A stretch of 64,000 nucleotides of DNA. Source: Blasia pusilla (Eukaryota). This document shows positions 5,769-59,600 of this stretch, piece after piece (within the stretch, counting starts at the first letter, position 1; every line of letters begins with the position of its first letter). The translations under genes and the position numbers were made by a program. The notes below the pieces were generated by a model, which had not been told where the DNA came from, ran no database searches, and saw nothing but the letters and a program-made list of their open reading frames with translations. Location of the stretch: positions 19,158,001 to 19,222,000 of the forward strand of contig CM114271.1 of NCBI GenBank assembly GCA_050084515.1, given 5' to 3'.

Positions 5769-8557
5769 GGATGCGGTAGGGCATGCAAAGATCTTTAGTA
5801 CTTTAGATCTCCGGCTGGCTATCATCCGCTTCCTATCAGGTTGGAGGATAGGGAGAAGACAACATTCTGAGGGATAGATCGGTTCGGGAGAGATTGTTTG
5901 TATCAGTGGCGGTTCTTACCATTTGGGTTGAAGAACGCGCCTGCAGAGTTTCAGAGAGTGATGGATAGGATTCTGGCTGGCTTGGATTTTGTACAATGTT
6001 ACATAGATGATATTCTTATCTTCAATTTCACGGTTGAGGAGCATGAGCGACACTTGGAGGAGATGTTCCGGAGATTGTAGTTAGTCGTTCAGCACACGAA
6101 GGTAGAGGATATTGCGCAGATTCCACGCCCTACAGATGTGAGTTGAGTCCGAGCATTTCTTGGACTGGCAAACTTCTATCGATGGTATGCCAAGGGTTTT
6201 AGTGCCATCGCAAAGTCTTTGACCTTGTTGACGAGACTTTATCAGGTTTGGTTGTGGGGAGATGATCAGGAGCAACCATTTCAGGAGCTTAAGGACAGGT
6301 TGACGTCCTCATCCATTTTACACAGACCGGTTAGGGGTTGCCCATTCCAGTTACATACGGATTGGAGCATGTTGGGTCTAGGAGCAATGCTTACTCAGAG
6401 GGATGACGAGGAGAAGGAGCTCGAGTTCATTGTGGCTTAGGCGAGCCGTTCGAACAACATTGCAGAGGCGAAGTACAGCTCCTACGAGGGAGAGTACTTG
6501 GCTGCAGTGTGGGCCATGGCACATTTCAGGTGCTATTTATTCGGCAACCCTTTCACTGATCATCAGCCGTTGAGGTTGTTGATGCAGTCCGACAAGCTTA
6601 CGGGAAAAGCTTGCCAGGTGGGATCTATTACTACATGAGTAAGAGTTTGAGGTGGTTCATAGGCTAGGTTGGCCGAATCAAGATGCGGATGGGTTGAGTC
6701 GTAACCCATGTCTCAATCAGAGAGACGACACAGGAGCTCGATGGAACGGAGAGAGTGATGAGGAGATGATGCACGGTTGGCATGCATCTGCCTATCTTTG
6801 TTGGTTGACTATGGCAGGTTAGCCACAGGTGATGACTCGAGTGGTGGGGTTGGATGATGAGTCTTTGGATCCGGAGGTCAGTGAGGAGGCGACAGGTGGT
6901 CGTGATATCCATGACGACGTGGAGGTTCTGGAGTTCTTGCGCACTAGTGTCATAGCGAGCACAATGAATGCTAGGGAGCGGGATCGGATCCTATATAGAG
7001 CCAAGAGGTTCAGGTCAAAGGGGACTCACATTTTGCGGGTATGGGGAGATGGTAGGATACGAGTGGTACCTCATCCTTCCCAGCGAGCACGTGTAGTGCG
7101 ACATGCCCATGAGGAGTTGGGAAATTTTGGAGTAAAGCGTACTTACAGCTTACTCCAGGTTCAATATTGGTGGCGCGGCATGCATACTAGGGTGCAGCCG
7201 TTTATGGCTAGATGTATGGTATGTGACAGAGTGCAAGCATCCTTCAATGCTCCCACTCTCAGTTACATCCTTTGCTGATTATGGGTTTAGGTTATTAGTG
7301 GAGTTTAGACTTTGCGGGACCTTTGCCATTGACGGGGCGTCATTATAGGTACGTGTTGGTCATGATGGAGCATTTCTCCAACTAGATAGAGTTGGTGGCA
7401 CTACCAAACAAGGCAAGCAAGGGAACAGCTTATGCATTTCTAGATCGTGTGCTTAGTCACTTTGGTGCACCGGTGGAGGTGTTGATTGACCAGGGTATCG
7501 AGTTCAAGGGAGAGTTTCAAGCCTTGTGTGATCAAGCGTTGATAAATCACCGCACCACGTCTAGAGATCATCCTGAGGCGGATGGGTTGGCGGAGAGAGT
7601 GGTACATACGGTGAAGAGAGGATTGCGCAAGTATGGCTTGCAGCGAGGACAGTTGAGGGAGTGGGACCTACAGTTGCCATGGTTGGCTATGGGTTATCGC
7701 TTTAGTCGGCAGGCATCCTTGGCGTCATTTTCACCGTACTTTTTGCTCTTTGGGAGAGAGCTAGATTTACCTGCAACCATTTGACGTGACATGGCGGAGG
7801 TGTTAGATCTTGATGATCCGGATGTGTGGGTACAAGCATGGTCTCAGAGGGCGGAGGTTTTTTGTAGAGTTATGCCTATGGCCTTAGAGAACTTAGCTAT
7901 TGCTCAACATAGAGATACTTTGAGGTACACGACCATTCGTGGAGGAGGTTATCGGCCAGGGATTAGGAGGTTTCATCCTGGGGATTACGTGCATTCACAG
8001 CAGGTGGCACCCACGATGCTAGATGTCACTACAGCGCGCACGATCCTACGTATGCGCAAGGTATTACCGACGGGAGTCCTCATGTTGGAGGGACGGGATG
8101 GTATGGTTTGGAAGGATCATGTGTGCAATTGTGCGCCATGTCATCTTCCAAACATAGATGGGACAATGGATCCAAGCTTGGCAGTGGTACCTGCAGGCTT
8201 GAGGTGTATGTTGTGCAGATCTGCGAGGGGTGCAGCCACCATGTTGGTATGTGATGGTTGTTCTCGAGGGTGGCATATGTCATGTCTAACCCCCTCTTGA
8301 TGTGGTTCCCAAAGGACGATGGATGTGTCCGAGATGTGTATAGGGTAGTAGGTCATGTCAAAGAGATGTGATATTTTCTATCTGGAGTTGGGGGGATCCA
8401 ACTGCCAACTAGGGGGGCGGTTGTGTGATCTCCATGTATATGTATGAGTTGATTTTTGTACATGTGTGGATCGACCCGTGTGTGGGGAATATCGGTGTTG
8501 TGTGGTGTAGTTGTGACTGGCGATGTATGTTGTGTAGCGATATGTATGCGCACGAAA
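5769..8557 (+). mobile_element. Gypsy family B 3' fragment: RT-RNaseH-integrase-PHD plus terminal B repeat
   Basis: RT DAVGHAKIFSTLDL..LPFGLKNAPAEFQRVMD..YIDDILI; RNaseH LHTDWSMLGLGA; integrase HHCC (HAHEELG..CMVC), core IDQGIEF..ADGLAERVV; PHD 8205-8337. Ends tatgcgcacgaaa, like the cacgaca terminus of other copies. Confidence 0.9.
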
Positions 8558-10589
8558 ACATTGGGGATGTAGAGGTGGTCAAGGAAACTTATCTGAGCAC
8601 GCATATATTCCCTTTGAGTACTAAACCCTAAACCTAGATCCGCCGTTACATCATTTATGCTTGTGTACATTGATCGAGCCATTGTTATACTATCACCAAT
8701 TGTTATCTTTTTGGTAGTTCCTAATCTCCGCCTTTAGATTTCTTTCGTTGGTTATATAGGAAATCTTCTTATCTTCTTCCCCTGAGCTATATATATGTTT
8801 AGTGGGATTGAGTCATCGAGGGCGGGAGATAGCCGAATGAAGTCTATTGATAGTGCCAAGAGGCAAAGAGTCAATTCAAGGAATGACTTTAACATGGCTA
8901 TAAGAGAGGCATGGTTAGACTGGTTTTTCTAGGTTAAATTAGAGAAGACTCAAAAGAACCTTTATTTTGAGGGATATGGATGGTTTCCATGACCATGCCT
9001 TGGAATTACAAAGATTCTCTCTGAGAGTTTCAAAGGCATGGAACTAAAAAGTTGGTGCTAAGGAGGCGGAAAGGTTAGGTGCATTTGATACCCAAGAAGG
9101 TGTTCATTTTGAGAGAATCTATGTCGATCTTAAGATATATAAGAAGGAGAAGCCCATCTTTGAAAAAACAACTCTACTAGAAAGATTTAGTGTAGAGTTA
9201 AAAAATACTTAACGTCTTTTTAAGAGACGTAATTATAGTGTGATGGGGAGGATATTGGTAGCTTCACATGGATTTATGTGGATTTTTAACAACGATGTAG
9301 TAATATGACATGATCTTGAGGATACTTTGGGCTCAGGTGTATACGAAACCGTGTATCGTTATAAAGTAAACCAAACCCTTGGCTTTAGTGAAGATATTAA
9401 ATTTCATGAAGTTGTTTAAGAAAGCATCGCAATTTTATTCAAGACAATCAATGATGCGTGAGGAGATTTTTGCTACTCTGTTACATCGAGGGATGGTACC
9501 CATGTTGGAAAGGTTGATTGAGGATTGAATGCTTGCCATTGAATACTAGAATGGTGGGCACCTTGAAAATTAAATGCAAGCATGCCACACCTTAAAGAGC
9601 AGAGGGACGCGCAAGTTTAGGAGAGTTACAGAAGATCATATGTCTCACGATGGCATCAAACATCATTCAGCTCATGATTGCCTTGCTTTTTACCATGGGG
9701 ACTGTCCATAAGTGTGGAGTTTTTCATATTGACCTTCATGCTAGGAACATTTTCATCCTTACAACTTAGAGCATAAAAAAGAGGGGAAGAACCCCACAAT
9801 CCACCAAGATGGCCAACGCTCGCAAACATGGGCAAGAAGACACTCTCACAATTCGTCACTGAAGATGAATTGAAGGCGCACTTGGACAACGCCATCGACC
9901 AAGATATTCTTAATGTAGGGTTCAAGAAGTTGCGGCTCAAGAAGTCGGATCGTGCGATTAGTAGATTTGCAAGGAAAGTGGGAGAAGATGAGTGGAAGAG
10001 GGATTGGGCCTTGTTCAATGGCATTGCAAGTTATGAAGACCTCTCAGCAAAGAAGAGGAAGCTAGTGAGTTTTTAATGGTGTCAATATAAGTCATAATTG
10101 AGTTTTTATGGGCCTAGAGAGAATTTTGATCGTCTTGTACATATCAGCGTTGTTCCCACAACCTTTTGTGGGGAGAGTGCTCAAAAAAATAGCAAGGTTA
10201 TGTCTTTTCTCTCACAGTTGGAGAGTTTAATAAAAAGATTCCCAACATACTTTTGATTTGGAAGCTGAATTTAACATATTAAAGGGGAAGCACCAACAGT
10301 TTTCTGAAGAGCACGAGAGACTAAAGAGAGAGATGGAGAGGATCATGAACGAGTCAATTTCCAGAGATGATCTCCATAGAAGATAAAGAGTTTTAATTGT
10401 GGACCATATAGAGCAATGGAGGAGAGCATTCCAAACCATCATGGCAAGATGATGACAAGAAATGCATGAACTATTACGATAGAGAGCAAGGGGCAATATG
10501 GGAGAACTCACTCCCAAGAAAACTTTGCATGAGGGTCATCTCATGAAATAGGCTGATAGGATCTTATTTCATCCTATTGAACAATTTTG

Positions 10590-11218
10590 GCCGCGTGCTC
10601 TACGTGCGATATAGGAATAGATCCAAAGGCTGCCAACTATGCTTCTTTGATGTTGGCACCAACACCTCTCAATCCGAGTAAACTTCATCAAAATATATGT
10701 CATTGGTTGAAGGCAATCGCTATAGCTAAAGGAGGGGCCCTCACGCCAAAAAAATGGCTAAAATACATGATTTGCGTCAGCCCCCATTTCCGTAGAAGGT
10801 TGCTACGTGTCAAGCACATGTAAAGCTTGCTATTGGAATCCAGAGCAGCAATGATGCAGTTGAATGAAGCATTAAAGTCACCACCATTTCTACGATAAGT
10901 GAGCTATGAATGTGGAAGACTTATAATCATCATAGTAGACACTAATCCTATTGCTATCGGGTGGGGAGTTGGGATGATGCGGAAGGAAGAAGGTTTGCAA
11001 GAAGGTTTGGAGCTGGTACATTCACGAAACGACAAGGAGGTACCATATCCTCAGGTCAAGAGAAAGCTTTGGGGAGTGACTGTAGTGAAAGCTGAGGGGG
11101 AGTACCTTATGGAAGCCTATGTATTGCTTGAGGTTCATTCTCTACCTCTGTTAGGTATGATTGCAAATTGTACAACTCAAGATATAGCCATTTTACGTTG
11201 GATAGCCTACATTAGGTC
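10590..11218 (+). pseudogene. Family A Gypsy pol fragment (RT-connection/RNase H), left part
   Basis: IIIVDTNPIAIGW..YPQVKRKLWGV..ILRWIAYIRS continues at 23283 as LNPQLRHIARKENSIVDMLSR once the family B insertion is removed. Confidence 0.75.
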
Positions 11219-11722
11219 TATCACGACTTTTAGGATAGATCGGCAAGATCTAGTAGAGTTCCTTTAGAGATATAAGAGGCCTCAGAAGGTCAAGGATGAC
11301 CTGTTGAGGCCACGGGTAACCTGTGAGAGCAGGTTTCCCCTTCGTTTCGGCTCATTTGGAGCCATATAGAGAAACTTACTATTTTTGGTAAGTTTTCATT
11401 TGGAGTATAGTTGACTTTCCACTTTGAAAAGTGGCCCTTGATCCGCTACAGCAGGTCAAGAGCCAAGGAGGTGACTTGCGAGCATAAGTTATCGAGGAGA
11501 GAGCTTGGGAGAGGGAAGGGCGTATACCTCCAAGAGAGAGAGCTTGAGAGCTCATTCTCTCTTTGTTGAACCTCTTTGGCATAATGCGGCGGAGCTATGG
11601 TCTTGCTTGCCTTGTGTATGTAATCTAAGCCTTTCATTAGGAGAGTGGGTTTGGTTTGACATGAGAGAGAGTGCACACCATGGAGAGATTGGTGTGAGAT
11701 GTTGAGAGAGATCCACTTGATT
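11219..11722 (+). repeat. Family B terminal repeat A1 (5' end)
   Basis: Direct repeat of 22636-23140 and 36005-36435. Homology ends at gagatccacttga and is not followed by the B segment or a TGG-type PBS. Confidence 0.88.
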
Positions 11723-14700
11723 TACAAAGAGAGAATGAGGATTTTAGAGCTATGATGGAGGAGCTTGCTAGTGTTTGCTGTTTGTTGTAGGTTGGGGAAT
11801 TTTGTTCCCCACTTCATGGCTCACGGGAGTGCTCATGGGAGCAAGAGCCATTCGTTTGATGTCATTTCTTATTGATTTTTCGTACGAGAGGGTGGCGCGC
11901 GGAAGCGCTACCCAAATTTTGGTACAGATATAGTATGGGGGCAGATTGCTCTATATTGGTACTCTTGGGAGCACCATGTAGCTTTCTGATTTGTGATTTT
12001 ATAGGTTGAAAGTTTTTCGTTGGAAGAAATCAGCGCGGAAGCGCTGCCAAAATTCCTCTAGGAGAAGAGACGTTGGGCATTACGACAATCCAAGTCAATT
12101 TTTATTGGAATGTCCGATTCAAAATACTTTTTGACATTGTCGTAGATTGTTAAGCTCTACACGTTGTGCAATAGACAATGTGCAATTTGGAGCTATGAGC
12201 AGAAAGTTATGGCCAATTTTGTAAATTTCCAATTTTTAGGGTAAAAATTTCCAAACCCTAAACTAGCTGCCCCTATCACCGTCCACCTTCACCGTCAGTG
12301 CCGTCACCATCACCATCACCGTCCGTAGTCCGTCGTCCATGCTGTTGCCGCTTGCATTTCTGCCGCCGCCCTTTGCCATTGCCTCTGCCGCTTCCGCCGC
12401 CACTTGTCACCTCACCGTGGTTTGTTGCCGTTGTCGGTATTAGTTGCTACTACCGCCGTGGCAAGTTGCTGCCAACATGAGTTGTCACCGCCGCCATTTT
12501 CCCCCACCGACGTCTCTACCGTAGCTGCTTGCCATCTCGTCGCCACGACCGCCACTATCAGCTGCCGTTACCGCCGCCAACACGAGTTTTCGCCGCCGCC
12601 GCGGCTGTTCAAGACGACCACCAGACAGCAACACTGATTAAGGCCAGGTAGGGCCCCCGTTGCCGTACTTGGGGAGTCTGTATGAGTCATTCCCACTCAT
12701 TAACTCGCAACTTCGATTGTGTGACCTTTTTGGATTCATGGGATCATAGTTTCTTTTCCACTTTGCTATGTTATGATTGGTAGCCGCTCGACGACGATCG
12801 AGTACCGTGTCGTGACGCCCGTAGCCGCAACACGCTGCTGATTGCCGTGCCGTGCCGCTTGTGGCCACACCGCACCGTCTCGATCGCGGAACCACACCAT
12901 CATTGGGGAGAAGAGTATATGTTACTATTGAGGAGGGTATGCCGCTAAGTGCCACATCCGTTAATGAGTGTCGTGCCATTTGTAGCCGTTTCGTGCCGCC
13001 AGTGTTGCACCGGACCGCTGGAATTGCACCGCACATCGAGGAGATTTGAGCATCATCAGTACCAAAGGAGTACGACGTGCTATTTGGAGGATTTTTCTTT
13101 ACGAGCGGGTTGGGGTCAAGATTTACAGTTGTTGAGGAGCGACATTGACATTTATTGTCAGGTTACCCATTCTAGTCTTTTTCTCTACACGTGTTAGGGA
13201 TTTTCGGGTATTGGGAAGTTATTTGGGATATTGGGTTTCATGCTGACGTTGAAAGCATTGATGATGGGATGTCCAAAGTTGAGGATGTCCAGAGTTGGGG
13301 ATGGTTTGTCGATGAGACGATAGATCATTAGATTTGCTGCATCACGTCGCTTGTTGCCGCATAGCACACGCCTTAGTGAGAGAGTGTAGATTAAGTGCCG
13401 CATGTTTAGTTTGAGTGATTGAGGGATTATCACGAGATTGAGATTGATCATGTGAGAGGAGCACGAGGTTCATCACAGTGTCCTTTCAGGATTTTGAGAG
13501 GCAAGGTAGAGGACCTGAGAGTAGCTCTGGAGGGTTTACCCGGAGTGGCGTGAGGTTTCGAGTGTCTCCACGTGAGAGGCCACCTTGATCTCCTTCTGCG
13601 TCGTCTTCAGACGAGGGGGAGAATGTACATGAGTGTGTTAGTGATCCACCGCACATATTGAGTGGTCCTACTTGTTTGGCATACAAGATTTTTGCGACCC
13701 TCATAACCAAACAAACACAAAATAGGCACCAAGCGGAACATCATACAGAGTGGACTTTGTACGCCACACTTGGATTCCAACCCGTGATTCATTTTGTGTG
13801 AGTCTCGGTTAGGGACTCATTGGATTTCCATCGGATAATTGGAACCGCCAAGCGCAAAATGCCGTTTGAGGTTCCTAAACCGACCAGAAAGTCTATCCCA
13901 AGTCTTTCGAGACTTGCCTGTGTTGTAAACCGCGAGACTAGGAAGGTTGAGCTTGATGGGAGACCGAGACGAGAACTCAGAAAGTTAGCCCGCTGATTGA
14001 TCCAAGACCCCACTAATAGGAGTGCATGTTTGGATGCGGATCAACGTTGAGAGCGTGACCTAGTGAACGCACGCTTCCGCAATAACAAAGATTAACGTTT
14101 AAGGAGAGTAGGCGCACGAGAGAGATGGACGACCGGGATAGAGGATTGCGTAGGTTTTTTGGGTCATGTAAGCACTATAGAGTTAGAGGACTTCATTGCA
14201 GAGTTTAGGAGTTGGTGTGACTCATAGCGGGCTAGGAACTCAAGAGAGTTCAACCCGTTTACAGCATCGAACGGTATGCTCCAGCATTTGGAGGGGGCGC
14301 CCATGGACGATAACCATGAGTTTTCCCACATATATGCCTAGGAGATTAAGGAATGGCAAATATACTATGACCCACATTATGTGTCATGGACTAAGCCGTT
14401 TCTCGATGAGGAGGAGGAGTCAAGAGAGGCCTCTTCGTCTTCCGCGAGTGATGTTTCAGGAGGGGTCACTCAAACTGGAGCAGTCTAGTCAGTTTTGCCC
14501 TAGGTTCAACCCCATGGTTGAGTTCTTTGCTAAGTTGCAGAGGAGCTACCATGGGGTACGGACGGAGAAGTTACGGAGCATCGAGGACTTCCAGAGGCGC
14601 CCGGGTGAGAGTTTGCGTGAAGCCAGAATTCCCTTACCTACTTCCTTATGTAATGTACAACTCTTCGCACAAAGACTACCTTCAGTCTTCTTTTGCAAAG

Positions 14701-15692
14701 AAGCTTTTCCAATCTTCGTTGACAATCTTCACCACTATTCCTACTGCGGTCTTCCTTACAAAGTACCCGCGCTTCTTGTTCTAGCTTATTTTCCCCTCCT
14801 CTCCTACTTTTACACAATTCTCACTCTTCCAAGATAGTCCTTAATCTCTTACTACTTCTTGTCTTTTCATCAGAGTTCTGGCATCCCATGTTGTCACACC
14901 CCTTTTTGTAAAGTAAACATCTTTACTTCTGATATTGAGTCTTTTAGTCTTCACTCAAGGGAGGCTTCACTACAATTTTTTACAAAAATTGATCTTTATA
15001 CCAAAATTTCAAAAATGCGGGCACTACATCTCACTCCGTGATAGTTCCTCCCCAACTCTTGGAAGAACTCAACCAACGAGTTGAACGCAGGTGGTACGCG
15101 GTTGGTCATACTCGTAAGACGTGGGTCGACAACTCCTCCAACTAGGGTGGGCCTAGAGGTCGTGCGGTAGGCGGTTCCGTTGGGGGATGAGGAGCTAGAG
15201 TTTTCGGAGGGGTTGGTGGAGTTGCCCGTGGAGGAGGTAGAGTCCCACCACCTAGATGCGTCGAGGGAGACGCCAGGCGTGAGGCTCGGATGGCTGCTTA
15301 GATACAGCAGCAGATTGCTCTATGGAACTTAAGTTACCCGATGCCAGATCGGTGGCATCAACGTCATATGGAGCAGCCACAGATATAGAGGATCCTAGTT
15401 GGATGTGCGGGATTGCCCAGATGGAGGTCACCATAGTTGTTACGTGTGGATTAGCCGTACATTTGGATCCATAGCAAGAGGAAGCCAGGAAATAGACCAC
15501 GCTTCCTCAATCTTTCACGTTGTCCGAGGCGATAAGGATCCCATCGATGGGTCTTGATCAGAGTTCCCAGAGAGTTGGTGATGTTGTTAGTGTGCAAGCA
15601 CGGAGGGCGATGGGAGAAGCAAGTGCAACGACTCTTATTGCTCATGCTCAAAAGGAGCATGTGTCAAGCACGTTGTTGGGGATGGCCACCGT

Positions 15693-16974
15693 TGTCGTGT
15701 CGAGAGCCTTTCTTAGAGTAACGGCGTACCTTGTAGCTGTAATAGTCGTGGTTGATGGAAGTCGAACTCTATAAGAATTTCTCCTTTTTCAGTACATAAT
15801 TATTATGTAAACTCTCCATTCTCTCATGACAGGAATCACGAATGGTAGTGCCGAGTCGATCACTTCTTCATAACATGGAGCCCCAAAATTCCTAACTATG
15901 AAATCCGTATTAACTACTTTACGTTTGTACACAAGTTAAATAACACAATTAGTGTTAAACCATACTCGAGCAAGCCTATTGACGTCCATGGATAGTTATA
16001 TAAGAACATACAAAGTGAAATCCCATGTCCTTCCGTACGTGACTATAGGAAGAATCACCGGTGTTAGAGATTGCATGACTTGACTCCTGAACGCGTCCCC
16101 AAAGTGATAAACTAGATAGCAAGTGAACTAATGTCTATTTATAAAGAGAATCTTGACGTGGTATGGGTTAAGAAAAGGAAAATCCGGCACAACTTGTGCT
16201 CCATCCATATCCATACTTGACAAACATCCTCTACTCTCCTCTAGAATGGGATTTGGCTTAGTTGCTCTCCCAAGAGGGATAATCCACTCTCGTTGGGAAA
16301 ATAACAAGCCAATCCATCGTTTATTTCTAGTATGACTAAATTCATCTAAGGTGACAAGTCTCTCATCTCCACACATACCACACTCTAGAAACCTTTCGGA
16401 GAATAGACCAAGGCCAAGTTATTCTCCCAAGAAGGGTTATTCACTCTCATTGGAAGAGCAAGAAATCCCAAAGCCATACAACTCAAGAATGACACGAGAG
16501 ACTCAAGATGTGAAGTAGAAGGTGATGAACCCTTGAAGGTCCCTCCTTTTTATATACTCACAAGGGATCCACAAGAATACAAAATAGGGCTAATCTTATC
16601 TTGTGCCACATGGCTTCCTCTCAAGGCTTAGCCAATCATATTTTGACACAAGTATATTACCTCTTATCTCTTCCAAAATATCCTCTTTTACTCCCTTCAT
16701 ATCTTCCAAACTACCCCACCAACCCTAGCCACCAACCAAGACTACTTTTGCTTTTATTTTATTAAAGCACTAACCCCATTTCTTTACTTTTCTAATCCCA
16801 TCTTTTATTTATTATCTTTTTTCCTTAAGTTGGGCCCGCGAAAATGAGTCACCCTAAAGAGGTTTAAACATGAGAATTTCATTTTCCTAGGCTAATTTAC
16901 TTAATACTAGTAAAACTCTCTCTAACACTTAATGATAGAGGAGTTTATATAACACGTGATTTTACTATATGACA
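15693..16974 (-). repeat. Family A solo LTR inserted into family B copy 2
   Basis: tgtcgtgtcg...ctatatgaca, 1282 bp, TSD CCGT (15689-15692 / 16975-16978). The empty site accgttgtgt is visible in copy 4 at ~61421. Confidence 0.95.
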
Positions 16975-18039
16975 CCGTTGTGTACCGGGCTCCTTTATTT
17001 TTTGCTTCCGATGTTATGACGTTGGGAGGAACGTCCGTCGAGGTTTTTTCGGCTGCCCGCTAGGTTATGTGAGCATGGAGTTGGAGTTCTTGCATCACAT
17101 TCAGAGGTGATTCCAAAGGAAGTGATGAACCTGCCATTGGAGCCTATGCTCAGGTCGTCCACGTCAAATTCATGGCAGAGCTACGGTTGCTAGGATGGCG
17201 AAGATTCCCGCTAGACCCGCGATAGAGTGTGCGATGGCTTCTCCTGGTGTTGTGTTGCTGTATAACCGAGGAGAGGTCTTCCAGTTGGTGAGTCCATGAG
17301 GTAGAGTTTTTAGTCCACACCGCGTCTTGTTGGATTCAGGAGCGCAACCCCTAATGCTGGGTAAGCGGCATTCAGAGGATTGGGCTTGATGAGAGCCGAT
17401 GTGGAGCGTTATCCATTCCAGATACAGACATCCTTGGATGGAGCAAGTACCACACAATATATCACCTGAGAGGAGATCGTGGTGAGGATTTGCTTAGGAC
17501 ACCCTACAGATGAGTCCGTGGTGCGAGCCAAGGCGATAGTGACCGATGTAGAGTCCTATGACGCCTTGGTTAGTGGAGCAGTGTTGTATCCGATGGGGTT
17601 TTTCCTAGATTACTGGAAGGAGTCAGCGTCCTCCAACAGACTAGGATGGCATTAAGGTGATAGGCGCCTTAGCTCATTACCCGTTTGATTCATCGGTGGA
17701 TTGATCAAGTGGCGACCAAGAGAGATGGCGACCTTAGCAGCATTTAGCAGCGCCATCATTTGGCCTAGTGATTTGATTGAGGGACATGTCCAAGCAGAGG
17801 ACACTCCCACTCCTGACATTTCTATGGAGAGGAGTGTCATTGTAGTTGCATCATTCTGTGGGGGAGAGGTGCTACTTTGGGGGTTGACTGAGGAGCTTCT
17901 ACGCTTAGCCACTGAGCATGTGCAGACCGTGGGGAGCGAGGTGTTTGCACCAGAGTGTGACGGGTTAGAGGAACCGGAGGTAGCCATGAGTGCTACTATG
18001 ATCCCTTTGGACACCAACCCGATTGTCTGGTGCATCCTA

Positions 18040-18960
18040 GAGAAGGGTATTCGCGTGCTGGATCTCTTTGGAGGGATAAGCACTGGTTTAGTTATTGTTT
18101 TGCACGTAGGAGTGCGCGTACACCTGTACCTGTATATTGAGATTGATGATGTTGCGAGACGCGCTTCACTTCACCATGTGGCGCAGTTATGCATCCATTT
18201 TCCCGACTTGTTGTCTACGTCCTCTGTCCAAGGATACTAGAGTTCCCTACCGAGGGATATTTCATTGTTGGGGGGCGTAGGTATTGGAGCGGGTAGGGAC
18301 CATAGACTTGGTCATTGATGGTTGGCTGTGTCAGGGCCAATCGAGTGCTAGCGGGTTAGCTGACTCTCAATCCAGGTTATTTTGGGAGATGATGCGGATT
18401 TTGCAACATCTGTAGGAGCATTAGTCTCGTTCTCCAGCATACATTCTGGAGAATGTGTTGATCTTGGGAGATTCGAGGTCACGGGTGATGACGAGTGAAC
18501 ATTAGGTGCAAGCATGGATCCGCCTAGCGTATTTTTGGATGCGGCGAGTGTAGGTTCACGAGCACATCGTCGGCGTCTTTGGTGGACCAACTTGGTGCCA
18601 CATGAGGTTTTGCGTAGGGTATATTCAGGTCATCAATCATAGGCAGTGAGGCACGATGATCGACCGTCGTTGATTGTGGTCAAGAGAATTGGCATGCCAC
18701 ACGTAGCCTTTCCCACATTTGTGAGTTTTCCCACTTCCTATGCATTCAAGGAGGCCGGACCTCGCTTGGTTTGGGATGACCAGGTACAGTGGTTGGTGGA
18801 GCCCAATATCGATGAGCGAGAGCAAGCGATGGAATTCCCCACAAGAGTGATGGGAGTACTATCACTATCACAGGCATCACGACGTCATGTCTTGGGTCAG
18901 GCAATGGACCTGAACGGCTTGACATGGATTTTTAGCTTAGGAGTAGCTGAGCAACGTTGT
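18040..18960 (+). pseudogene. DNMT3-like C5 cytosine methyltransferase domain of copy 2 (disrupted)
   Basis: IRVLDLFGGISTGL (I), YLYIEIDD (II), DLVIDGWLCQG (IV), YILENV (VI), AHRRRLWWTNL (VIII), EREQAMEFP (IX), RRHVLGQAMDL (X), in canonical order. Confidence 0.9.
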
Positions 18961-21900
18961 TTGAGGATGCGACAAATCAGAGCTATTGCGTTGGTGAGCC
19001 CCATGCCTACCAAGATGGTTGAGGCAGTGGCTGGGGACGAGACCCGAGGAGATCGACACACCAGGGGTGATCGGGAGACACATCCTTGGACTTCTTGGGA
19101 TGTTTTGCAGGTACGCCAGGAGATGATAGCCACAATATCGAGCGTGGTTTCGGGTACTGTACATGGAGATGAGAGTTTGCCGTTCGCTGTAGGGGAGCAT
19201 CCAAGTTCTACTGTCCGAGACGGCGTTGTACCATAGCAACCACCAACATCCGTGTTGGAGAGTCTTACCGTAGTCACGATGAAGACTTAGGAGCTAGATA
19301 TGGGCCCTAAGTTGATAGTAGGAGAGCGGCGCCGGATACACGAGTTCCTTAGGAGTTATAGTAGTTGTTTTGCATTTAGCATGCATGATTTGGGTACGCT
19401 TAAGGGCCCAGGGATCCGCATTGAGTTGTCAGTGACACGCCGATCTTCCGACGATCCTAGAGGTGTAGTGACATGGAGAGGGCTTTGATTGAGTAGGAGC
19501 AAAGACTTGGTTGGAGCAAGACTTGTGGAGATGTCGCATGGAGAATATGCATCCGCCACTTTCATGCTCGCCAAGAAGGATGTGCATAGCAACTGGACAA
19601 ATAGGCAATTGTGGGGAGACTACCTACCTATCAATCGGCAGACAAAGTCCAATAGTTATGCCATGCCCACGCTTGAGGAGATCTTTGATGCTATTGGGCA
19701 TGCAAAGGTCTTTAGTTCGTTAGATCTTCGAGTTGGATACCATCAACTGCCTATCAGATTGGAGGACAGGTACAAGACGGTATTTTGGGGCACCAATCCT
19801 CACGGGAAGGATTTCTTGAACCAGTAGTGGTTCTTACTATTTGGGTTAAAGAACGCACCAGTTGAGTTTTAGAGGGTCATGGATAGGATCTTGGCAAGTC
19901 TGGATTTTGCTAGGTGTTATATTGATGACATTGTAGTCTTAAGCACCATGGTTGAGGAGCATGAGCGACATCTTGAGGAGATTTTTCGACGATTGTAATT
20001 ACATGGGCTCAAGCTACATCTAGGCAAGTGCAAGTTCTTCTACGACTAGATTGAGTACTTGGGTCATTCGATATATCCAAGGGCCTTGGTGTCCAGCAAA
20101 CGAACATAGAGGCTATTTCACCCATTCCATGCCCTACAGATGTGAGTCAAGTTCATGCATTCATGGGATTAGCAAACTTCTATCGACGGAACATCAAGGG
20201 TTTTAATTCGATTGCGAAGCCGCTAACCTTGCTGACCAAGGTGGATCAAGAGTGGCACTAGGGGGGCTCAAGCAAGAGAGAGCATTTTAGCTGCTCAAGG
20301 ACATATTGACGTCCGCGCCCCTATTGAGAAGACCAATCAAGGGACGACCTTTCCAGTTGCATACCAATTGGAGCATGTTGGGGCTTGGAGCCGTGCTCAC
20401 CCAGCATGAGGATGATGGTAGAGAGTTTGTGGTGGCTTACGCTAGTTGCTTGAACAACGTTGTAGAGGCAAAGTGTAGCTCGTACAAGGGTGAGTACTTG
20501 GCTGCAATGTGGGTTGTCGCATATTTCATATGTTATCTATTGGGGAACCCCTTTACCATCATTGCAAATCATTAGCCACTTAAGTGGTTGATGAAGTCCG
20601 ACAAGCTTACAAGGAAGCTTGTGAGGTAGGCTCTTTTGTTGCAGGAGTATGACTTCCAGGTGGTGCATAGACCTGGGACGCTCAACTAGGATCTAGATGG
20701 TTTAAGCCATAATCCATGCCTGAGTCAACGAGGTGCGACTGGAGCTCGTTGGCATGGTGAGAGTGATGAGGAGTTGGTGCCAGGATGGCACGCACTAGCC
20801 TATTTGGGCTTGTTGATTATGGACAGCCAGATTGCTGAGACTTTGATGGTGAGGTCAGATGGAGAGTCCTTAGATCCAGAGGCCAATGAGGAGACGACAG
20901 GTGGCCGAGATATTCAGGACGATGAAGTAGTCTTGGAGTACCTGCGTACCCGCAGCATTGCGAGCACAGTGGGTGCTAGACAGTAAAATCGGATCCTACA
21001 GCAAGCCAGACGGTTCCGGCGGGAGAGAACACATGTGTTGCGAGTTTGGAAGTAGTGCCTCATCCTTCAGAGAGAACATGTTTGGTGCGTCATGGCCACG
21101 AGGAGTTGGGTCATTTTGGAGTAAAGCGGATCTACAGCTTGCTCCAAATACACTATTGGTGGCGAGGTATGGAGACTAACGTTCAGTAGTTTGTTTCCAA
21201 GTGCATGGTTTGTGATCGGATCTAGGCATCGTTCAATGCTCCCACTCCACAGTTGCATCCACTTCCGATCATGGGTTTAGGTTAAAGATTGAGTTTGGAT
21301 TTTGCAAGACCTTTACCTTTGACGGAGCGCCATAGTCGTTATGTGTTGGTGATGATGGAGCACTTCTCTAAGTAGATAGAGTTGGTTGCATTGCCTAACA
21401 AAGCGAGTGAGGGGGTAAGGGATGCCTTCCTAGATCGAGTGCTAAGTCATTATGGCACACCAGCTGAGGTGTGTCAGGCCAGGGTACAGAGTTTCGCGGG
21501 GAAATTCAAGCCTTGTGTGATCAGGCGTTGATCGACCACCACACCACTTCGCGAGATCATCTTGAGGCGGATGGACTAGCAGAGAGGGTTGTGGAGACAG
21601 TGAAGAGAGGATTGCGCAAGTACGGCTTGCACAGAGGTCACCTAGGAGATTGGGACCTCCAATTTCCGTGGTTGGCGATGGGATAAAAATTCAGCAGGCA
21701 TCCTTAGCATCTTTCTCACCGTACTTGCTACTTTATGGCCAAGAGCCAGATTTAACTGTGGCGATTTGTTGAGATATTGGTGAGGTGTTGACTCTTGATG
21801 ACCTTGATGTATGGATGCAAGCATGTTCTTAGAGGGCTGAGTTTTTTTGAAGAGTGATGCCCATGGCGTTTGAGAACTTGGCGATTGCGTAGCATCAGGA

Positions 21901-22184
21901 TATGTTGAGGTATGCGATAGGTGGTTATTGACCTACTATCCGAAGGTTTTATCAAGGAGACTATGTCTACTTGCAGCAGACGATACCCACGACGTTGGAT
22001 GTGACTACAGGGCGCATCATCTTGAGAGTGCGTGAGATTTTTCCATCCGGTATTCTCTTATTGGAGAGACGTGATGGTATAGTTTGGAAGGACCATGTGC
22101 GTAATTGTGCGCCGGCTATGTCATCTTCCAAACATTTACTGTACAATTGATCCAAGCTTAGAAGTAGTTCTTGCAGGCTTGCGA

Positions 22185-22319
22185 TGTATGTTGTGTGGTT
22201 CTGCCCATGGTACAGCCACTATGCTAGTTTGTGATGGGTGTTCGAGAGGGTGGCATATGGCATGTCTGACGCCACCTCTCACTAGAGTTCCTCAGGGATG
22301 ATGGATGTGTCCCAGATGT
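22185..22319 (+). other. PHD finger (C4HC3) at integrase C-terminus, family B
   Basis: CMLCGSAHGTATMLVCDGCSRGWHMACLTPPLTRVPQG*WMCPRC. The same domain is at 8205-8337 and ~35555-35690. Confidence 0.9.
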
Positions 22320-22496
22320 ACATAGAGTAGGTAGTTCTAGATTCTGACTTATGTCTGTGACATGGATGATAAGAAGGGGACTAACTATGGGGCCACATGA
22401 GCAACCGGCCTTTCTGCTCTTAGCGTCTGAGAGATGTATGCCATGGTAGGTAGGGATAGATGGCTATCGAGAGTTAGAGGGATCTAACCACCAGCT

Positions 22497-23278
22497 AGGG
22501 GGACAATTGGAGATATTTTGGTACTTCTTGTCTCATTTTTTGGATGCTATGAGTTAGCATGGGATCGTGTGTATTTGTGTGTATGTTTGTTGACAACGAT
22601 GTATGTTGTGTAGCGATGTGTATGCGCACGACAATTGTCACGACTTATAGGATAGACTAGCGAGATCTAGTAGAATGCCTTCAGAGATACTGGAGGGCAA
22701 CCTCAAGACGTTGAGGATGACTTGTTGAGGCCACGAAAAATCTACGAGAGCAGGTTTTCCCTTCGTTGGGGCTCATTTGGAGCCATATAGAGAAACTTAC
22801 TATTTTGGGTAAGTTTCCATTTGGAGTATAGTTAACTTTACACTTTGGGAATTGGCTCCTGACCCGCTACAGTAGGTCAAGAGCCAAGGAGGTGACCTTC
22901 GAGCATAGATTACCAAGGAGAGAGCTTGGGAGAGGGAAGGGATTATACCTCCAAGAGAGAGAGCTTGAGAGCTCATTCTCTCTTTGTCGAACCGCTTGGC
23001 ATGAGGCGGCAGAGCTATGGTCTTGCTTGCCTTGTGTGTATAACCCAAGCCTCTCATTAGGAGAGCGGATTTGGTTTGACATGAGAGAGAGTGTACACCA
23101 TGGAGAGATTGGTGTGAGATGTTGAGAGAGATCTACTTGAGTTGGGGGCAATTGGAGATATTTTGGTACTTCTTGTCTCGTTGTTTGGATGACATGAGTT
23201 AGCATGGGATTGTGCGTGTTTGTGTGTATGTTTGTTGACGGTGATGTATGTTGTGTAGCCATGTGTATGCGCTCGACA
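22497..23278 (+). repeat. Family B 3' terminal repeats B1-A2-B2
   Basis: B1 22497-22633 (agggggacaattggagatatttt...gcacgaca), 2-nt spacer 'at', A2 22636-23140 (tgtcacgac...), B2 ~23144-23278 (gggggcaattggagatatttt...gctcgaca). Confidence 0.9.
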
Positions 23279-23282
23279 GGTC

Positions 23283-24119
23283 CTTGAATCCACAATTGAG
23301 GCATATAGCTAGGAAAGAGAACTCAATAGTTGACATGTTGTCTAGAGCTAGATTTAATCAAGAAGAAGATATAGAGGCAACCATTTGCTTCGATGAATCT
23401 AGAGGCAAATGGCAAGAGCGAAAGGGGGCATCCGCTAATCATTCAAGTTTTGGTAAAAGTGTGTGGAGACCGTTATGTTAATTAGCCTAGATTGCTTCCA
23501 TTTTATTTATGGGCAGATAGAACCACTCACAACACCGTTACAAGGTTTATTCCTACAAAGTTGATGAGGTTCAAAAGCCAATAAGGCCAGCAGAAAGAGA
23601 TATTCCCATTTGGATGGGTTTGCCGTGGGAGGACAAGCTCAATAGCGAAGAGCTCCTAGCGCTTCGAATGCAGCAACTAGAGCAACGTGAAAACGATATA
23701 GCATAAGCATTAGTCGAAATGAAGAAAGCAAGGCTAAAAAACAAGGAGCGCTTGGAAAAAACCCATTGACTTTGAAAGGAGCCTATAAGAGAAGGAGATT
23801 GGGTCTTGGTGCAGGACAATAGCCTTGACAACCAACATAGTACAATTAAGAAGTTTGAACGTCGTTGGTTTGGTTCATATGTTGTAGTCTTTATTTTTTA
23901 CAATGCCACTTATAAACTACGTGAGCTAGATGGCACAATTCTCAAGTTGCCCATTGCAGGAAAAAGGGTCAAGGTTTTCCATGGTCGTGAGGGATTTCTT
24001 GATTTCAATGAATCAATTTAATCTATCTAAAGAAATAGCAAAAATAAGCCTGAGTAAAATAGCAAGAAGTCTTGATATTTCGGCACATGCCAGAGGATAT
24101 ATAGTTCTGGAGGGGTGAA
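23283..24119 (+). pseudogene. Family A Gypsy pol fragment, right part (RNase H end, internally deleted integrase C-terminus) and PPT
   Basis: LRHIARKENSIVDMLSR; GPY/F-like KFERRWFGSYVV..NATYKLRELDG. Purine tract ggaggggtgaa lies immediately before the LTR start at 24120. Confidence 0.8.
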
Positions 24120-25000
24120 TGTCGTATAGTAAAATCATCCACTATGTAAACTCCTCTCTCATTAACTGTTAGAAAGAGTTTTATTAGTATTAAGTAAATT
24201 AGCTTAGGAAAATGAAATTTCCATGTTTAAACCTCTTTAGGGTGGCTCATTTATGCGAGCCCAACTTTAGGAAAAGAGGTAATAAGTATTGAAGATTGAG
24301 TTACAGTCAAACTCATGAAACACATGAACTCCTACATTTGGTACTCACACAAAGTAGGGAAGCTTAATCTTGGTTAGTCATTTAAGCGCGATTATCTTAA
24401 CTAGGATTAGTTAATCAGAGTTAGTCTAACTCGAGACGATGGTTAAGGTAAGGGTTAGGGTTGCTTGTACATACCCTATATAATTGAGAAGGGGGGCTGT
24501 CTCCACTAATTCTTTCATTACAAATTTTGATCTTCATGGTGGTGTGTGAGTGTGAGAGTTGTTTCCCACTAGTTATGCTTTTTTAGTAATTTTCCACATT
24601 GTATCAGAGCAATAGGAGAACATCATTTAAAATTCTTAGTGTTTGAGGAGAGAAGAGAGGCAAGAGAAGGCAAAATTTCAGTCTGGGAGAAGGAAATTTT
24701 GTTCAGAGCTCAATGGGTGCAGATTTCAGGTGGAGCTTTGACGGTGATAAAACTTTGGAGGCATTTTTTAGGGCTTTTCAGGTCAATTTAGCCATCGGGG
24801 TCCGCAGTGGCTAGAATGATGCTAGAGGATGCTTCTAGAAGTCTTGTAGAGCTGGTGGAGAGCTTTCCAACGCATCTAAAATCGCTTGATTTTGACATTC
24901 TGAGCTCATGCAATAGCAATTTTAGTGTAGGAAAGTGCAATTAGGAGGTCTAGTATTCTAGCAAGGAGAGGAAGAGAGGAGAGTCTCTCTAAAAAAAAAA

Positions 25001-27385
25001 GGGCCAAATCCTTAAACTCTCTTCAATTTTTGAGGTTTTATCCCTACTTAAAATGAAATGAATTTTTCAAAAAGAGTAAGAAGTGCACCATAGTGGGCTC
25101 TTTATCCAAGACTCCCACCCTCATCCCCAACACTTCGTGAGAATCTAACAACCAGTCATAATAGACTTGTGATTCTAACGGGACTACAATGAAGGAAACG
25201 AGGCTGGGAGTTGCAAAGAATGAATTGAAAATTATGGTAATAAATTATGAAAAATGACAATGTTAAGATTTCATTTTTGCAAGGGAATTACAGTATCTAA
25301 GCTTGCAACCTCTCAGAAAATCAGATACTCCAAAAGTATGCTTTGAAGAAAATGGGGGAGCAAGATCAAATGATATTAGCATTCTTCTCAGCTTGCATGC
25401 CAGCTTTCAAAGTTTTGGAACCTTCACATCCATTTGAAGAAGGATCTTGACAAATCCTTCTTCAAATGGATGTGAAGGTTCCAAAACTTTGAAAGATATG
25501 AGAAATCCATGGTGCAAATGAAAACAAAATCAGTAAAAGCGTTTAGGTTAGCGTTGCAGCCTGTTGAAATCCGACACCTTGCAAACACTCTCTTTTTTGT
25601 GTTTATCTTCCAACCCATCGGAATCCGACAGGTTTCAAGATAAAGAAAAAAAAGACAAAGTTGTTACCAGGGGTTTCCTCTGACAAGTTTGAACCTATGC
25701 AACCTCTCTGAATCGGACTTGTTGCCAGACATGGCATCAATCAAGAAGATGTTCCAAGAGTCACTTTAGAGTAGGCATGCATGGAAGAGTTGGGCTAGTA
25801 TTGTGGTAGATTTTAGGAGTGTAGAGGAGGACGTCAAAAGTGGAAGATGCAGAAGAGCCAAATGAAGAATAGAAAACCCAAAAAATGAAATGCTCATAAG
25901 GGAATCAACCTGAGTCATGCAACCTGTCAAGATCCGACAGGTAGTAGGAATCCAACAGGTCTCTGAAATAACGTGTTAGAGAAGAATGGTGTGACGATAA
26001 TGGGGGAACAAGGCGAAAGTGAAGAAGCCTGCCAGAATGCCTGAAAAGTTGGACTAACAGGAAAAGAGAGGGATCACTCAAGTAGCCCACCTGTCGGAAT
26101 CCGACAAGTTGCCTGAATGGGGTTTAAAGAAAGGTAGAAAGAGTCTCGGTAGTAACTTCGTCAACCTGGTCTACAAATATAACAAGACACAAGAATTTAT
26201 GCATACATTTGTACTCATCCAAGTTCCATTTTTGGCTTCCAACTTGTCGACGTGTGACAGGTTCACGGAAAAAAAATCACAGACCATTCAAATCAATGAG
26301 GAAAAAATTACAGACATGCCCAAGAGAAGAAAAAATTTCAACTCCACTCGCTACCTGTAGAAAAAAAACCCATCGGAAACGGACGGGTTGCAATAGCAGG
26401 CAATCATCAGTTTGCAATTTCTCGGAATTCCACATGTCGCAAACTTAGTTCTTGATTTGCAACCCGTCGATTTCCGACGGGTTGCAAACCTTGTCCAGGA
26501 ACTGCAACTAGTCGGAATCCGAGAAATTCCAAACTCGCTCATTGGTCCCTCATTTTTATGGTTGCAAACCACAGCCCCAATTTGCAACTAGATCGTAATC
26601 CAACAGTCCCTGGTTCCCTGGTTTGCAACCCGTCGAAATCTGAAAGGGTTGCAAAATAAACAGCATCGAGTAGATAGACCAACACAATCGACAAGAACGA
26701 AATATAATTCAGCAAAATTTTACAAAAACCATCATGGTTCAAAAACTTCTTGTCCTTTATTACATCCGAGGGAAGCTTGAAAATATATATTTGATCTAGT
26801 CTATGATTTCTTTAGCCTCGTCATCTACAAATTTATTCCTAACTCTCCTATGTTCTTGTACAAAAGGAATGTCTTGGGATACAAATGGCTCCTCTGGCTG
26901 ATTGTAGACGGGGATTGTAAATTTTGGGGAATTCGAGAGCCTTGGCCTCCCCTTAGGTACACCATAGCGGTTCCATGTAACATGATTTGAGTCCCAACGC
27001 CTTCCTCGACAGTGAATCTTGTATGCTCTGCAAGGTGACATCCATCCAGTATCAATATGTGTTCCATCCTTGGAAACCACTAAATCCCAACTCCAAAACG
27101 CTTTAGTCAAGTTGGGTCTGATAAATCTTTAAACTCACTTGTCATCTCCGAGAGCTCTTCCAGAATTAATGTCGACTTTGCCCTCCCGATTTTTGGAATA
27201 GTAGGAAATGACGATGGTGTCACTATGAATGGTGGTTCTGGAACTGGAGCAGTTGGCTTTGGAGGAGAGTTTTATACTCCCACTAGCCTCTCGTAATCCG
27301 CCTTTGCCTCTTTGCAAAGGTCAAAGAGTTCTGGCCTTCCCTAAAGGCAGAGAATGTTTGCAATTGTGCTCACAAGAGATGACAC
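25001..27385 (-). mobile_element. Probable Mutator (MULE)-like fragment replacing Copia gag
   Basis: No Copia gag is recognisable here. Starts gggccaaatcc after an A run; minus-strand SCEHNCKH (SWIM-like end) and PKGRPR; repeated palindromic motifs. Second TIR not found. Confidence 0.4.
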
Positions 27386-35432: not shown

Positions 35433-36564
35433 TATTGGAGGGACGTGATGGTATGATTTGGAAGGAAGATGTGCATAACTATGCGCCATATCACCTTCCT
35501 AACATTGACAGTATAGTTGATCGGAGCTAAGCACTAGTTCATGCAGGCTTACGCTGCATGTTGTGGTTCTGCCCGTGGTGTAGCCCCTATGCTAGTCTGT
35601 GTAATGGATGTTCGAGAGGATGGCATATGGCATGTCTGATGCCACCTCTCACTAGGGTTCTTCGGGAAGATGGATGTGCGGCTAGATGTACGTAGAGTAG
35701 GTAGTTATAGATTCCAACTTGTGTCTGTGATATCGATGACAGGAAGGCGACTAACGATGGAGCCACATAAGCACCCACCCTTTTTGCTCTTAGCGTCTTA
35801 CAAATGTATATCATGGTAGGAAGGGATAGATAGCTATGTGGAGTTAGAGGGACCTAACCACCAACTAGAAGGGCGATTGGAGATATTTTGGTGCTTCTTG
35901 TCTCGATATCAAGATTCCATGATTTAGCATGGGATCATACGTGTTTGTGTGTATTTTGATGACACCAATGTATATTGTGTAGCGATGTGTATGGGCACGA
36001 TAGTTGTCACGTTTGTTAAGATATATATTAGATCAACGAGATCTAGTAGAGCGCCTTCCGATATATTGGAAGAAAACCTCAAGAGATCAAGAATGACCTG
36101 TTGAGGCCACGGATAACCTGAGAGAGGAGGTTTCCCCTTCGTTTCAGCTCATTTGGAACATATATATATATATATATATATATATACTATTTTGGGTAAG
36201 TTTCTATATTGAGTGTAGTTGACTTTCCACTTTGGGAAGTTGCCCTTGATTGTAGCAGATCAAGAGCCAAGGAGGTGATCTGCGAGCATAGGTTATCAAG
36301 GAGAAAGATTGGGAGAGGAAACGGGTTATACCTCCAAGAGAGAGAGTTGGAGAGCTCTCTCTCTTGGAGTATACTACATCTCATACAGATGTAGTATGCA
36401 CCTTGTGAGAGATTGTGTGAGAGATCTATTTGATTTATTTGAGATATTTTGGTACATCACTTCTTAATGTTTGGACTCCATGAATTAGCATGAGATTGTG
36501 TATGTTTGTGTGTATGTTCGGTGACAACGATGAATTTTGTGTAGCAATGTGTATGCACACGACA
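35433..36564 (+). mobile_element. Gypsy family B copy 3, 3' end (integrase tail, PHD, B1-A2-B2 repeats)
   Basis: LEGRDGMIWK.., decayed PHD; B1 ~35867-36002, spacer gt, A2 36005-~36435, B2 ~36440-36564 ending cacacgaca. Confidence 0.88.
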
Positions 36565-59115: not shown

Positions 59116-59226
59116 TAGCATCTATCGATCGACTCGTCGATGATGCGCGTGTACAGAATTGTTTAGGTCCAGGTAGATCTACTTCGAACGAGGCACCAAA
59201 TTGGCCCAGCTCCATCCCTTTCACTC

Positions 59227-59600
59227 ACAAGTTCGATTACATTCTCGAGTTTCATCGATTGTAGCTCACAAGTTCGATTACATTCTCGGGTTTTGATCGA
59301 TTGAAGCTCATAAAGTGCGATTGTATTCTCGAGTTTTGATCGATCGAAGCTCAGAAGTTCGATTGTATTCTCGAGTATTGATCGATTGAAGCTCACAATT
59401 TCGATCTTATTCGTGAGTTTTGATCGATTGAAGGTCGCAATTTCGATTGTATTCTCGGGTTTTGATCGATTGAAGCTCACATATTCGATTGTATTCTCGC
59501 GTTTTGGACTATCGAAGTTCAGAAGTTCGCTTGTATTCTCGGGGTTTCCACCGATTTACGCTACCAGTTCGATCGTAGTCTCGGGTTTCGATCGGCTTAA
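59227..59600. repeat. Minisatellite, ~41-42 bp unit, ~9 copies
   Basis: Unit approx. aagttcgattgtattctcgagttttgatcgattgaagctcac, repeated with decay toward the right. Confidence 0.9.

Follow-up and report, generated by a model that had tools for sequence, protein, structure and literature searches.

The stretch considered here, a window of 64,000 nucleotides of Blasia pusilla DNA (contig CM114271.1, positions 19,158,001 to 19,222,000), is a nest of plant-type retrotransposons. The subject of this work is one of them, an element at 11219-23278 (hereafter copy 2), a degraded member of a Ty3/gypsy family that is very abundant. Comparison of the window with itself revealed that copy 2 is laid out as A1 ... 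B1-'at'-A2-B2, A and B being two direct repeats (Table 1). This layout, the same arrangement B1-'gt'-A2-B2 in copy 3, the joining of the right end of the element to its left end at the B1/A2 joint, and an A2/B2 boundary that is unlike in the two copies had all been proposed in an initial annotation of this DNA, and they are borne out by the self-comparison, by the sequence of the joint and by joints read directly, the coordinates of copy 3 being 1-2 nt off the earlier ones. The boundaries differ by a short segment, x, which is present in copy 2 and absent from copy 3.

A1 and A2 are 87.2% identical over 507 columns (11221-11723 aligned with 22638-23143), and B1 and B2 are 90.4% identical over 135 (22499-22633 aligned with 23144-23278); this near-equal decay fits the idea that both pairs were identical at the time of insertion. 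At the B1/A2 joint, B1 runs to its last letters, ...GCGCACGACA, at 22633, the spacer occupies the next two positions, and A2 opens at 22636 with TGTCACGAC; the joint is spanned by a perfect 10-nt palindrome, GACAATTGTC, and B2 terminates at 23278 with the letters ...CGCTCGACA. The termini of the element, T(A/G)TCACG...CGACA, are TG...CA ends accompanied by a short target-site duplication (TSD), as is the rule for Gypsy elements. The same rule asks for equal long terminal repeats (LTRs) at both extreme ends, with a primer-binding site (PBS) behind the 5' one and a polypurine tract (PPT) ahead of the 3' one, and here copy 2 departs from it: its left end consists of A only and its right end of A plus B, the position of the PBS is behind A, and that of the purine tract is ahead of B1, not of A2. 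The order A1...B1A2B2 is that of the split direct repeats of DIRS-type elements.

The limits of the insertion and its joints were followed in reads of a whole-genome shotgun run (X13, sampled at about 1 in 100), of two RNA runs (X16 and X17) and in one contig set, all under the same species label; about 2 gigabases of reads were compared with the region 11000-23400 at 80% likeness. The empty site is represented by 127 DNA and 174 RNA reads in which 11213 is joined to 23278 with five letters fitting both sides, the reads coming from other, uninterrupted copies of the host repeat. Thus, the inserted unit has the first base of A1 and the last base of B2 as its exact limits and is flanked by a TSD of GGTC or AGGTC, a duplication that shows an insertion of the integrase type. 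The depth of 2300-3000 over pol indicates how abundant the family is. Behind the B end at 22633, as many as 1054 reads continue into dissimilar sequence, with an agreement of 0.33 and an AT-rich consensus, and the heterogeneity of these flanks implies that the B end is a true terminus in many copies. The joint of the B end to the A start is also recurrent (145 DNA reads and 70 RNA reads, the latter from both X16 and X17); by our reading, its spacer is AC, GC or GT in other copies and AT in copy 2, that is, always two bases, which vary. Moreover, in 47 DNA reads of other copies, in which the last ~60 nt of A are divergent, the sequence proceeds from 11721 exactly like copy 2, and in 139 DNA reads of other copies a variant A end passes into B, resuming at 23151, the first base of B.

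The domains of copy 2 were identified in its three forward frames, read through with X at stops. They follow the order protease, reverse transcriptase (RT), RNase H and integrase, which is that of Ty3/gypsy pol, and the assignment made in the initial annotation, a Gypsy element with a DDE-type integrase, is supported by the domain matches, the match to the DDE core of copy 2 being weak, and by the TSD of 4-5 bp seen in the empty-site reads. A tyrosine recombinase (PF00589) was found neither in the three forward frames of copy 2 at E<=0.01 nor, at E<=0.1, in the intact polyprotein (3592 aa) of a relative from a metagenome locus, L001, which comprises protease, RT, RNase H, methylase, integrase and PHD finger and whose rve match has E=2e-10. 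The C5 cytosine DNA methylase of copy 2 is degraded, that of a further copy in the window (copy 4, 62498-63400) matches PF00145 with E=2.2e-9 and 37.6 bits at 62693-62929, and that of L001 (residues 2346-2504) is homologous to the methylase of the window with E=4e-18; in PDB, the methylase has weak matches to enzymes of several kinds (HhaI and DNMT3C at 0.007-0.008, DNMT3A/B at ~0.014-0.017, DRM2 at 0.1). RT, RNase H, integrase and PHD are likewise present in the nearest long proteins of the public collection, one of which was recovered as L001; the PHD finger occurs in 2 of 8 matches, and the third match, P0004, the next-best long relative, carries a chromodomain. The PHD finger (residues 3192-3236 in L001) occupies the place that the chromodomain has in chromoviruses, and the place of the methylase differs, this domain lying in the gap between protease and RT in copy 2 and in that between RNase H and integrase in L001. 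Just before the PHD finger of copy 2, at 22114, 4 of its bases are missing in 1385 of 1910 reads, which points to a frameshift private to this copy. No repeats were found in the L001 contig, whose flanks measure only 105 and 169 nt, so that no termini are seen in it; a degenerate B-end pattern had no match in the metagenome_contigs or viral_contigs collections, and the pol query had no relative in viral_contigs.

The sequence behind A1 contains no PBS of the TGG type, as already noted in the initial annotation, and TGGTATCAGAGC with up to 2 mismatches matches the window twice, neither match being near A1. The self-priming complementarity that the same annotation had envisaged at this place is indeed there: the bases 11724-11739 (ACAAAGAGAGAATGAG), from the first base after A1 onward, are the perfect 16-nt reverse complement of CTCATTCTCTCTTTGT, which occurs within A1 and again within A2, at 22972-22987. 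In the 60 nt after A1, a complement longer than 12 nt was obtained in 0 of 2000 shuffles, and the longest complement in 177 interior windows of 60 nt was 10. In the predicted fold of 11551-11745, the 5' end is paired with the bases of the PBS in both the minimum free energy and the centroid structures (z = -3.4), and a TATA-like site, conserved in all three A copies, lies ~27 nt upstream of CTCATTCTCTCTTTGT. The position of the complement, directly behind A1, would place R and U5 inside A, with the U5 end at ...CTTGATTT, and argues that A1 is not a truncated LTR. Hence the letters support a putative tRNA-independent self-priming of the element, and ACAAAGAGAG... would be the bases expected directly after the 5' A in copies of the family. 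A second primer site was sought at the start of A2 and at the end and start of B1, where no complement longer than 10 nt was found except for the joint's own palindrome. The presence of a diverged B after A1 was also considered, and it was rejected, the best local match (32 nt, ~215 nt downstream, z = 3.4) being equalled by at least one shuffle.

In these respects, the element resembles the self-primed Tf1/sushi, plant Tcn1 and TAR elements, which likewise have no tRNA PBS and in which the bases adjoining U5 are the complement of a stretch of the LTR, the would-be 5' end of the RNA. Their LTRs, however, are ordinary and identical, whereas the repeats of the Blasia element are permuted, and Tf1 and Tcn1 have a chromodomain where the Blasia element has a PHD finger at the C-terminus of pol. 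According to the part of PMC6317226 that deals with the REXdb survey, self-priming is predicted for 12% of plant elements and, among plant Gypsy elements, only for Tcn1, of mosses and club-mosses.

In each of copies 1, 2 and 3, a tract with 9 purines out of 10 adjoins B1 at the corresponding position (AGGGGGACAA, AGAAGGGCGA and AGGGGGGCGG), and the 12 nt ahead of A2 (GCGCACGACAAT) are not purine-rich. At the A2/B2 joint of copy 3, the end of A, ...TTTGATTT (...GATTT), directly meets ATTTGAG, the counterpart of the B start ATTGGAG; in copy 2, the same A end (GAGTT, with one change) is followed by GGGGGCA and then by ATTGGAG. The inserted GGGGGCA equals the last bases of the purine tract, GGGGGACA, less one base. 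The joint is thus made up of the exact end of A, of 0 or 7 nt of the purine tract and of B from its first base, and the boundaries of copies 2 and 3 would thus differ in whether bases of the purine tract were kept where two complementary DNA (cDNA) ends were joined. Aberrant junctions of retroviral 2-LTR circles resemble such joints. The PBS behind A, the purine tract ahead of B and the make-up of the A2/B2 joint, taken together, indicate that the repeat made by reverse transcription would be B+A.

Regarding the layout, elements of the PAT, Ngaro and DIRS types possess a tyrosine recombinase and insert without a TSD. They share with the Blasia element the order A1 ... B1-A2-B2 and an internal B/A joint made of the right end and the left end; unlike them, the Blasia element has a probable DDE-type integrase, TG...CA ends, a TSD of 4-5 bp and no recombinase domain among those found. 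In our literature search, split direct repeats were met in tyrosine-recombinase elements only, and nothing relevant was found on Gypsy elements with a PHD finger and an integrase. Nevertheless, the idea put forward in the initial annotation, according to which split repeats are exclusive to tyrosine-recombinase elements, is contradicted by section 9 of PMC5890265, where a Gypsy element of Klebsormidium nitens, KnitGypsy-Dnmt3, is described with DIRS-type repeats in the order A-coding-B-A-B. In that section, this element is also said to carry a C5 DNA methylase within a Gypsy-type pol. Judging from the size of the sequencing runs, the genome of the present host, a different organism, seems to be far larger than that of Klebsormidium. 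The Blasia element combines a C5 methylase inside a Gypsy pol with repeats in the order A-coding-B-A-B, and it therefore probably belongs with the Gypsy-Dnmt3 elements whose DIRS-type repeats that section notes and leaves unexplained. The description given there includes no priming sites, TSD or mechanism. The literature search retrieved no paper beyond PMC5890265 for the name KnitGypsy, and a 2026 preprint has a passing reference to 'streptophytes (Gypsy-DNMT3)'; so far, the arrangement has been noted once for Gypsy elements, in the section cited and without an explanation there.

We suggest that the arrangement might arise in the following way. Transcription would start inside A near CTCATTCTC, ~27 nt past the TATA-like site; the 5' end of the RNA would fold back on the 16-nt PBS behind A1 and prime the minus strand, as in Tf1, and the plus strand would start after the purine tract adjoining B1, yielding a linear cDNA of the form [B-nn-A]-PBS-genes-PPT-[B-nn-A]. 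The ends of this cDNA would then join, the end of A to the start of B and sometimes with a few bases of the purine tract, into a 2-LTR circle or its equivalent. Finally, the integrase would cut the internal joint of the left repeat, whose form, CA-nn-TG, is the one that integrases recognise, and the opened molecule would be inserted with a duplication of 4-5 bp, the product being A-PBS-genes-PPT-B-nn-A-x-B. We infer the circle and its cutting by the integrase, as well as the start and end of the transcript and the actual self-priming, from the sequence. We regard the cycle as a whole, in which the genomic copy is a circular permutation of the B+A cDNA opened at its CA-nn-TG joint, as a serious possibility that falls somewhat short of being probable; the cutting of a circle is the best explanation available. 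The more general proposal, that in this DDE family the integrase would normally act on a circle or joined cDNA instead of the linear cDNA and open it at an internal att-like CA-nn-TG joint, as a DDE counterpart of DIRS/Ngaro replication, is more tentative still.

The non-canonical replication route invoked in the initial annotation would therefore be retained in part. Its independence from tRNA agrees with the sequence; a special strand-transfer route is not needed, since reverse transcription would be canonical for an LTR of the form B+A, and the non-canonical part would be the location of the integration ends inside this B+A LTR. Retroviral integrases have been reported to cut the LTR-LTR junctions of 2-LTR circles, as far as the relevant parts of PMC1180852, PMC1905944 and PMC4372172 go. 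In both cases, a DDE enzyme would open a CA-...-TG joint and provide ends fit for integration; in retroviruses, however, such cutting is an accessory route back to the usual linear form, whereas in the Blasia element it would be the main route, and the cut would fall inside the repeat.

Several observations speak against this reconstruction. No RNA read spans the A-to-PBS or A-to-B joints listed, as opposed to the 47 and 139 DNA reads reported above, and among the read ends of the two RNA runs none was usable as a transcript start or end site in A or B. The depth falls from ~1120 at 11680 to ~51 at 11753, which means that most A reads have no copy-2-like leader behind them. The leader is clearly fast-evolving, with a depth of 12 over the stretch 12242-12655, yet a distant copy of the family (copy 0) has a similar GC-rich stretch. 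Within the window, the family has no 5' end besides that of copy 2 and, most of the primer motif having been lost from the A2 of copy 3, the complementarity is known from one copy only, in both of its A repeats. An ordinary indel, or gene conversion from B1, could account for the x that distinguishes copy 2 from copy 3. The rve match of copy 2 (E=0.007, 17 bits) lies under the Pfam cut-off of 32.6, and the circle, the linear cDNA ends and the activity of the integrase are all deduced from DNA letters. An obligate circle route would, moreover, be costly, since cutting the other B/A joint of the circle, or both joints of the linear cDNA, would give dead copies.

Other explanations must be weighed against the cutting of a circle. 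The element might replicate like DIRS and use its DDE integrase at the last step only, with B1-A2 as a bridging template and A2-x-B2 copied from the parent. This is unlikely, although it has points in its favour: the layout is that of PAT, Ngaro and DIRS elements, the repeats of KnitGypsy-Dnmt3 are called DIRS-type in the section cited of PMC5890265, and x, of which two full copies were compared, may be inherited within subfamilies. However, the PBS behind A and the purine tract ahead of B already constitute a complete canonical scheme for B+A, and the composition of the joint, the exact U5 end plus the end of the purine tract, is predicted by the joining of ends and is not required by a bridging template; furthermore, no tyrosine recombinase was found in copy 2 or in L001, and a TSD is present. 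In another view, A-genes-B by itself, bounded by TG...CA and devoid of an LTR, would be the unit that moves, and A2-x-B2 would be a second, head-to-tail unit with an internal deletion, the dimer having then been copied. Indeed, A2-x-B2 does resemble a unit lacking everything from the U5 end to the purine tract, and the B-like end of copy 1 at 8558 meets unrelated sequence with no A behind it. Yet in both copies the supposed deletion stops precisely at the U5 end and at the PPT, unlike random deletions, the 2-nt spacer has the regularity of a circle joint, and the first strand transfer would be impossible for a unit that lacks R at its 3' end; we consequently hold this origin to be improbable.

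The initial annotation had itself named the case that would overturn it, that is, an ordinary element with a complete A+B 5' LTR followed by a tRNA PBS, in which the 5' LTR of copy 2 and its kin would have lost B and the PBS, and B1 would be an incidental old duplication. A+B does have TG...CA ends and a TSD, a related repeat ending in ...GCGCACGA has CACG and a PBS of the initiator-Met type next to it (1015 reads, agreement 0.48), and the form of most 5' ends of the family lies outside what was displayed. Against this, the 16-nt complement begins at the first base after A1, and a deletion would need to have stopped exactly there; the A-to-leader joint recurs in the 47 reads of other copies, and no joint of the B end to a PBS appears among the 15 joints listed of 465. 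Behind the B end, where the agreement of 0.33 and the AT-rich consensus were obtained, there is no constant PBS, no purine tract lies ahead of A2, and B1 with its purine tract is kept down to a pol identity of 72%, its last 38 nt being 95% alike. On these grounds, an A+B LTR appears very improbable, even more so than a mobile unit without LTRs, and the cutting of a circle remains the reading that we adopt.

Table 1. Features of copy 2 and of related or nested sequences in the window (positions in the window).
Feature	Coordinates	Strand	Basis
Copy 1 (72% pol identity): purine tract (8411-8420) and B1-like stretch	8411..8558	+	self-comparison
Left TSD, AGGTC (GGTC if the element ends in CA)	11214..11218	+	read joint and sequence
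A1, left repeat, TATCACG... to ...CTTGATTT; TATA-like site near 11524; proposed R-U5	11219..11723	+	87.2% identity to A2
Proposed self-primer CTCATTCTCTCTTTGT, putative first bases of the transcript	11551..11566	+	16-mer repeated in A2
Proposed self-priming PBS ACAAAGAGAGAATGAG	11724..11739	+	perfect 16-nt complement and predicted fold
Segment S, foreign to most copies of the family; piece of another repeat ending in GCGCACGA	13685..14121	+	joints 13671/13684 to 14122, 116 reads
X, nested solo LTR of another family, 1286 bp, TGTCGTG...ATGACA, flanked by CCGTT	15687..16972	+	joint 15686 to 16973, 486 reads without X
Protease motif LLDSGA	17327..17344	+	translation; no Pfam match
C5 cytosine DNA methylase, degraded; motifs I, VI, VIII, X	18055..18910	+	PF00145, E=0.0025
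Reverse transcriptase	19609..20073	+	RVT_1, E=3e-22
RNase H	20270..20650	+	RT_RNaseH, E=2.4e-22
Integrase: H2C2 zinc domain (21064-21219) and degraded DDE core	21064..21465	+	Integrase_H2C2, E=3e-12
PHD finger, C-terminus of pol	22185..22319	+	PF00628, E=2e-9
Purine tract AGGGGGACA, proposed PPT, adjoining B1	22497..22505	+	homologous tract in copies 1, 2 and 3
B1, ATTGGAG... to ...GCGCACGACA	22506..22633	+	self-comparison
2-nt spacer 'at', between CA of B1 and TG of A2	22634..22635	+	sequence; GT, GC and AC in other copies, from reads
A2	22636..23143	+	self-comparison
x, GGGGGCA, end of the purine tract copied between A2 and B2	23144..23150	+	comparison of copies 2 and 3; missing in copy 3
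B2, right end of the insertion	23151..23278	+	self-comparison and reads
Right TSD, GGTC	23279..23282	+	sequence and reads
Copy 3: purine tract 35867-35876, B1 to 36002, 'gt' 36003-36004, A2 36005-36436, B2 36437-36564	35867..36564	+	self-comparison

The family is represented in the window by three A copies, four B copies and one B-like end at 8521-8558, which belongs to copy 1. The last 38 nt of the B1-like stretch of copy 1 are 95% like B1 and are followed by unrelated sequence, the change falling at 8558/8559, exactly at the B end, with no recognisable A behind; this end could be a form A-genes-B, the remains of a diverged A or the result of a rearrangement. Copy 0 (317-4060, minus strand) is a distant member of the family, with 61-66% identity, which breaks off at 4631; its gag start resembles that at 14125 and its GC-rich leader resembles 12242-12655. 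Copy 2 lies in a host sequence (8559-11218 and 23279-24119) in which no Pfam match was obtained but RNase H and integrase of another Gypsy element can be made out by eye, and which is uninterrupted in the 127 DNA and 174 RNA reads of the empty site; the possibility that it is the LTR of copy 1 was rejected, as it reads by eye as the pol of another Gypsy element.

Copy 2 itself contains foreign sequences. Segment S ends in GCGCACGA, like B, and its relatives continue behind 14119 with CACG and TGGTATCAGAGC in about half of 1015 reads, which indicates that a related repeat in the genome has the same terminal motif beside an ordinary PBS of the initiator-Met type. The segment ending at 14119 was therefore considered as the true 5' LTR end of the family and was rejected, since it has only GCGCACGA in common with B and is skipped by other copies. 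The nested 1286-bp LTR occurs also at 4631-5763, 29959-31612, 33474-32370 (minus strand) and 24288-24120 (minus strand), and its RNA reads are on the strand opposite to that of the host element. One of its inverted copies received the insertion of another LTR retrotransposon (24289-32370), with LTRs of 312 bp (24285-24596 and 32058-32370) and TTGTATCAGAGC at 24599. The tandem-like direct repeats revealed by self-comparison at 53066-53831 and 59224-59594 are unrelated to the split-repeat element.

In LTR retrotransposons and retroviruses, the ends produced by reverse transcription are, as a rule, the ends used by the integrase; in the Blasia family, the two would be offset by 135 bp. A practical consequence is that LTR finders requiring equal terminal repeats and a tRNA PBS would delimit such elements wrongly, taking A as the LTR and excluding B2. 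The C5 methylase and the PHD finger concern the chromatin side of the element and may be linked to its cycle. Finally, 2-LTR circles are usually regarded as dead ends; if the circle route were true, they would be the productive intermediate of a successful plant family, and a testable mechanism would be available for the DIRS-type repeats of Gypsy-Dnmt3 elements.

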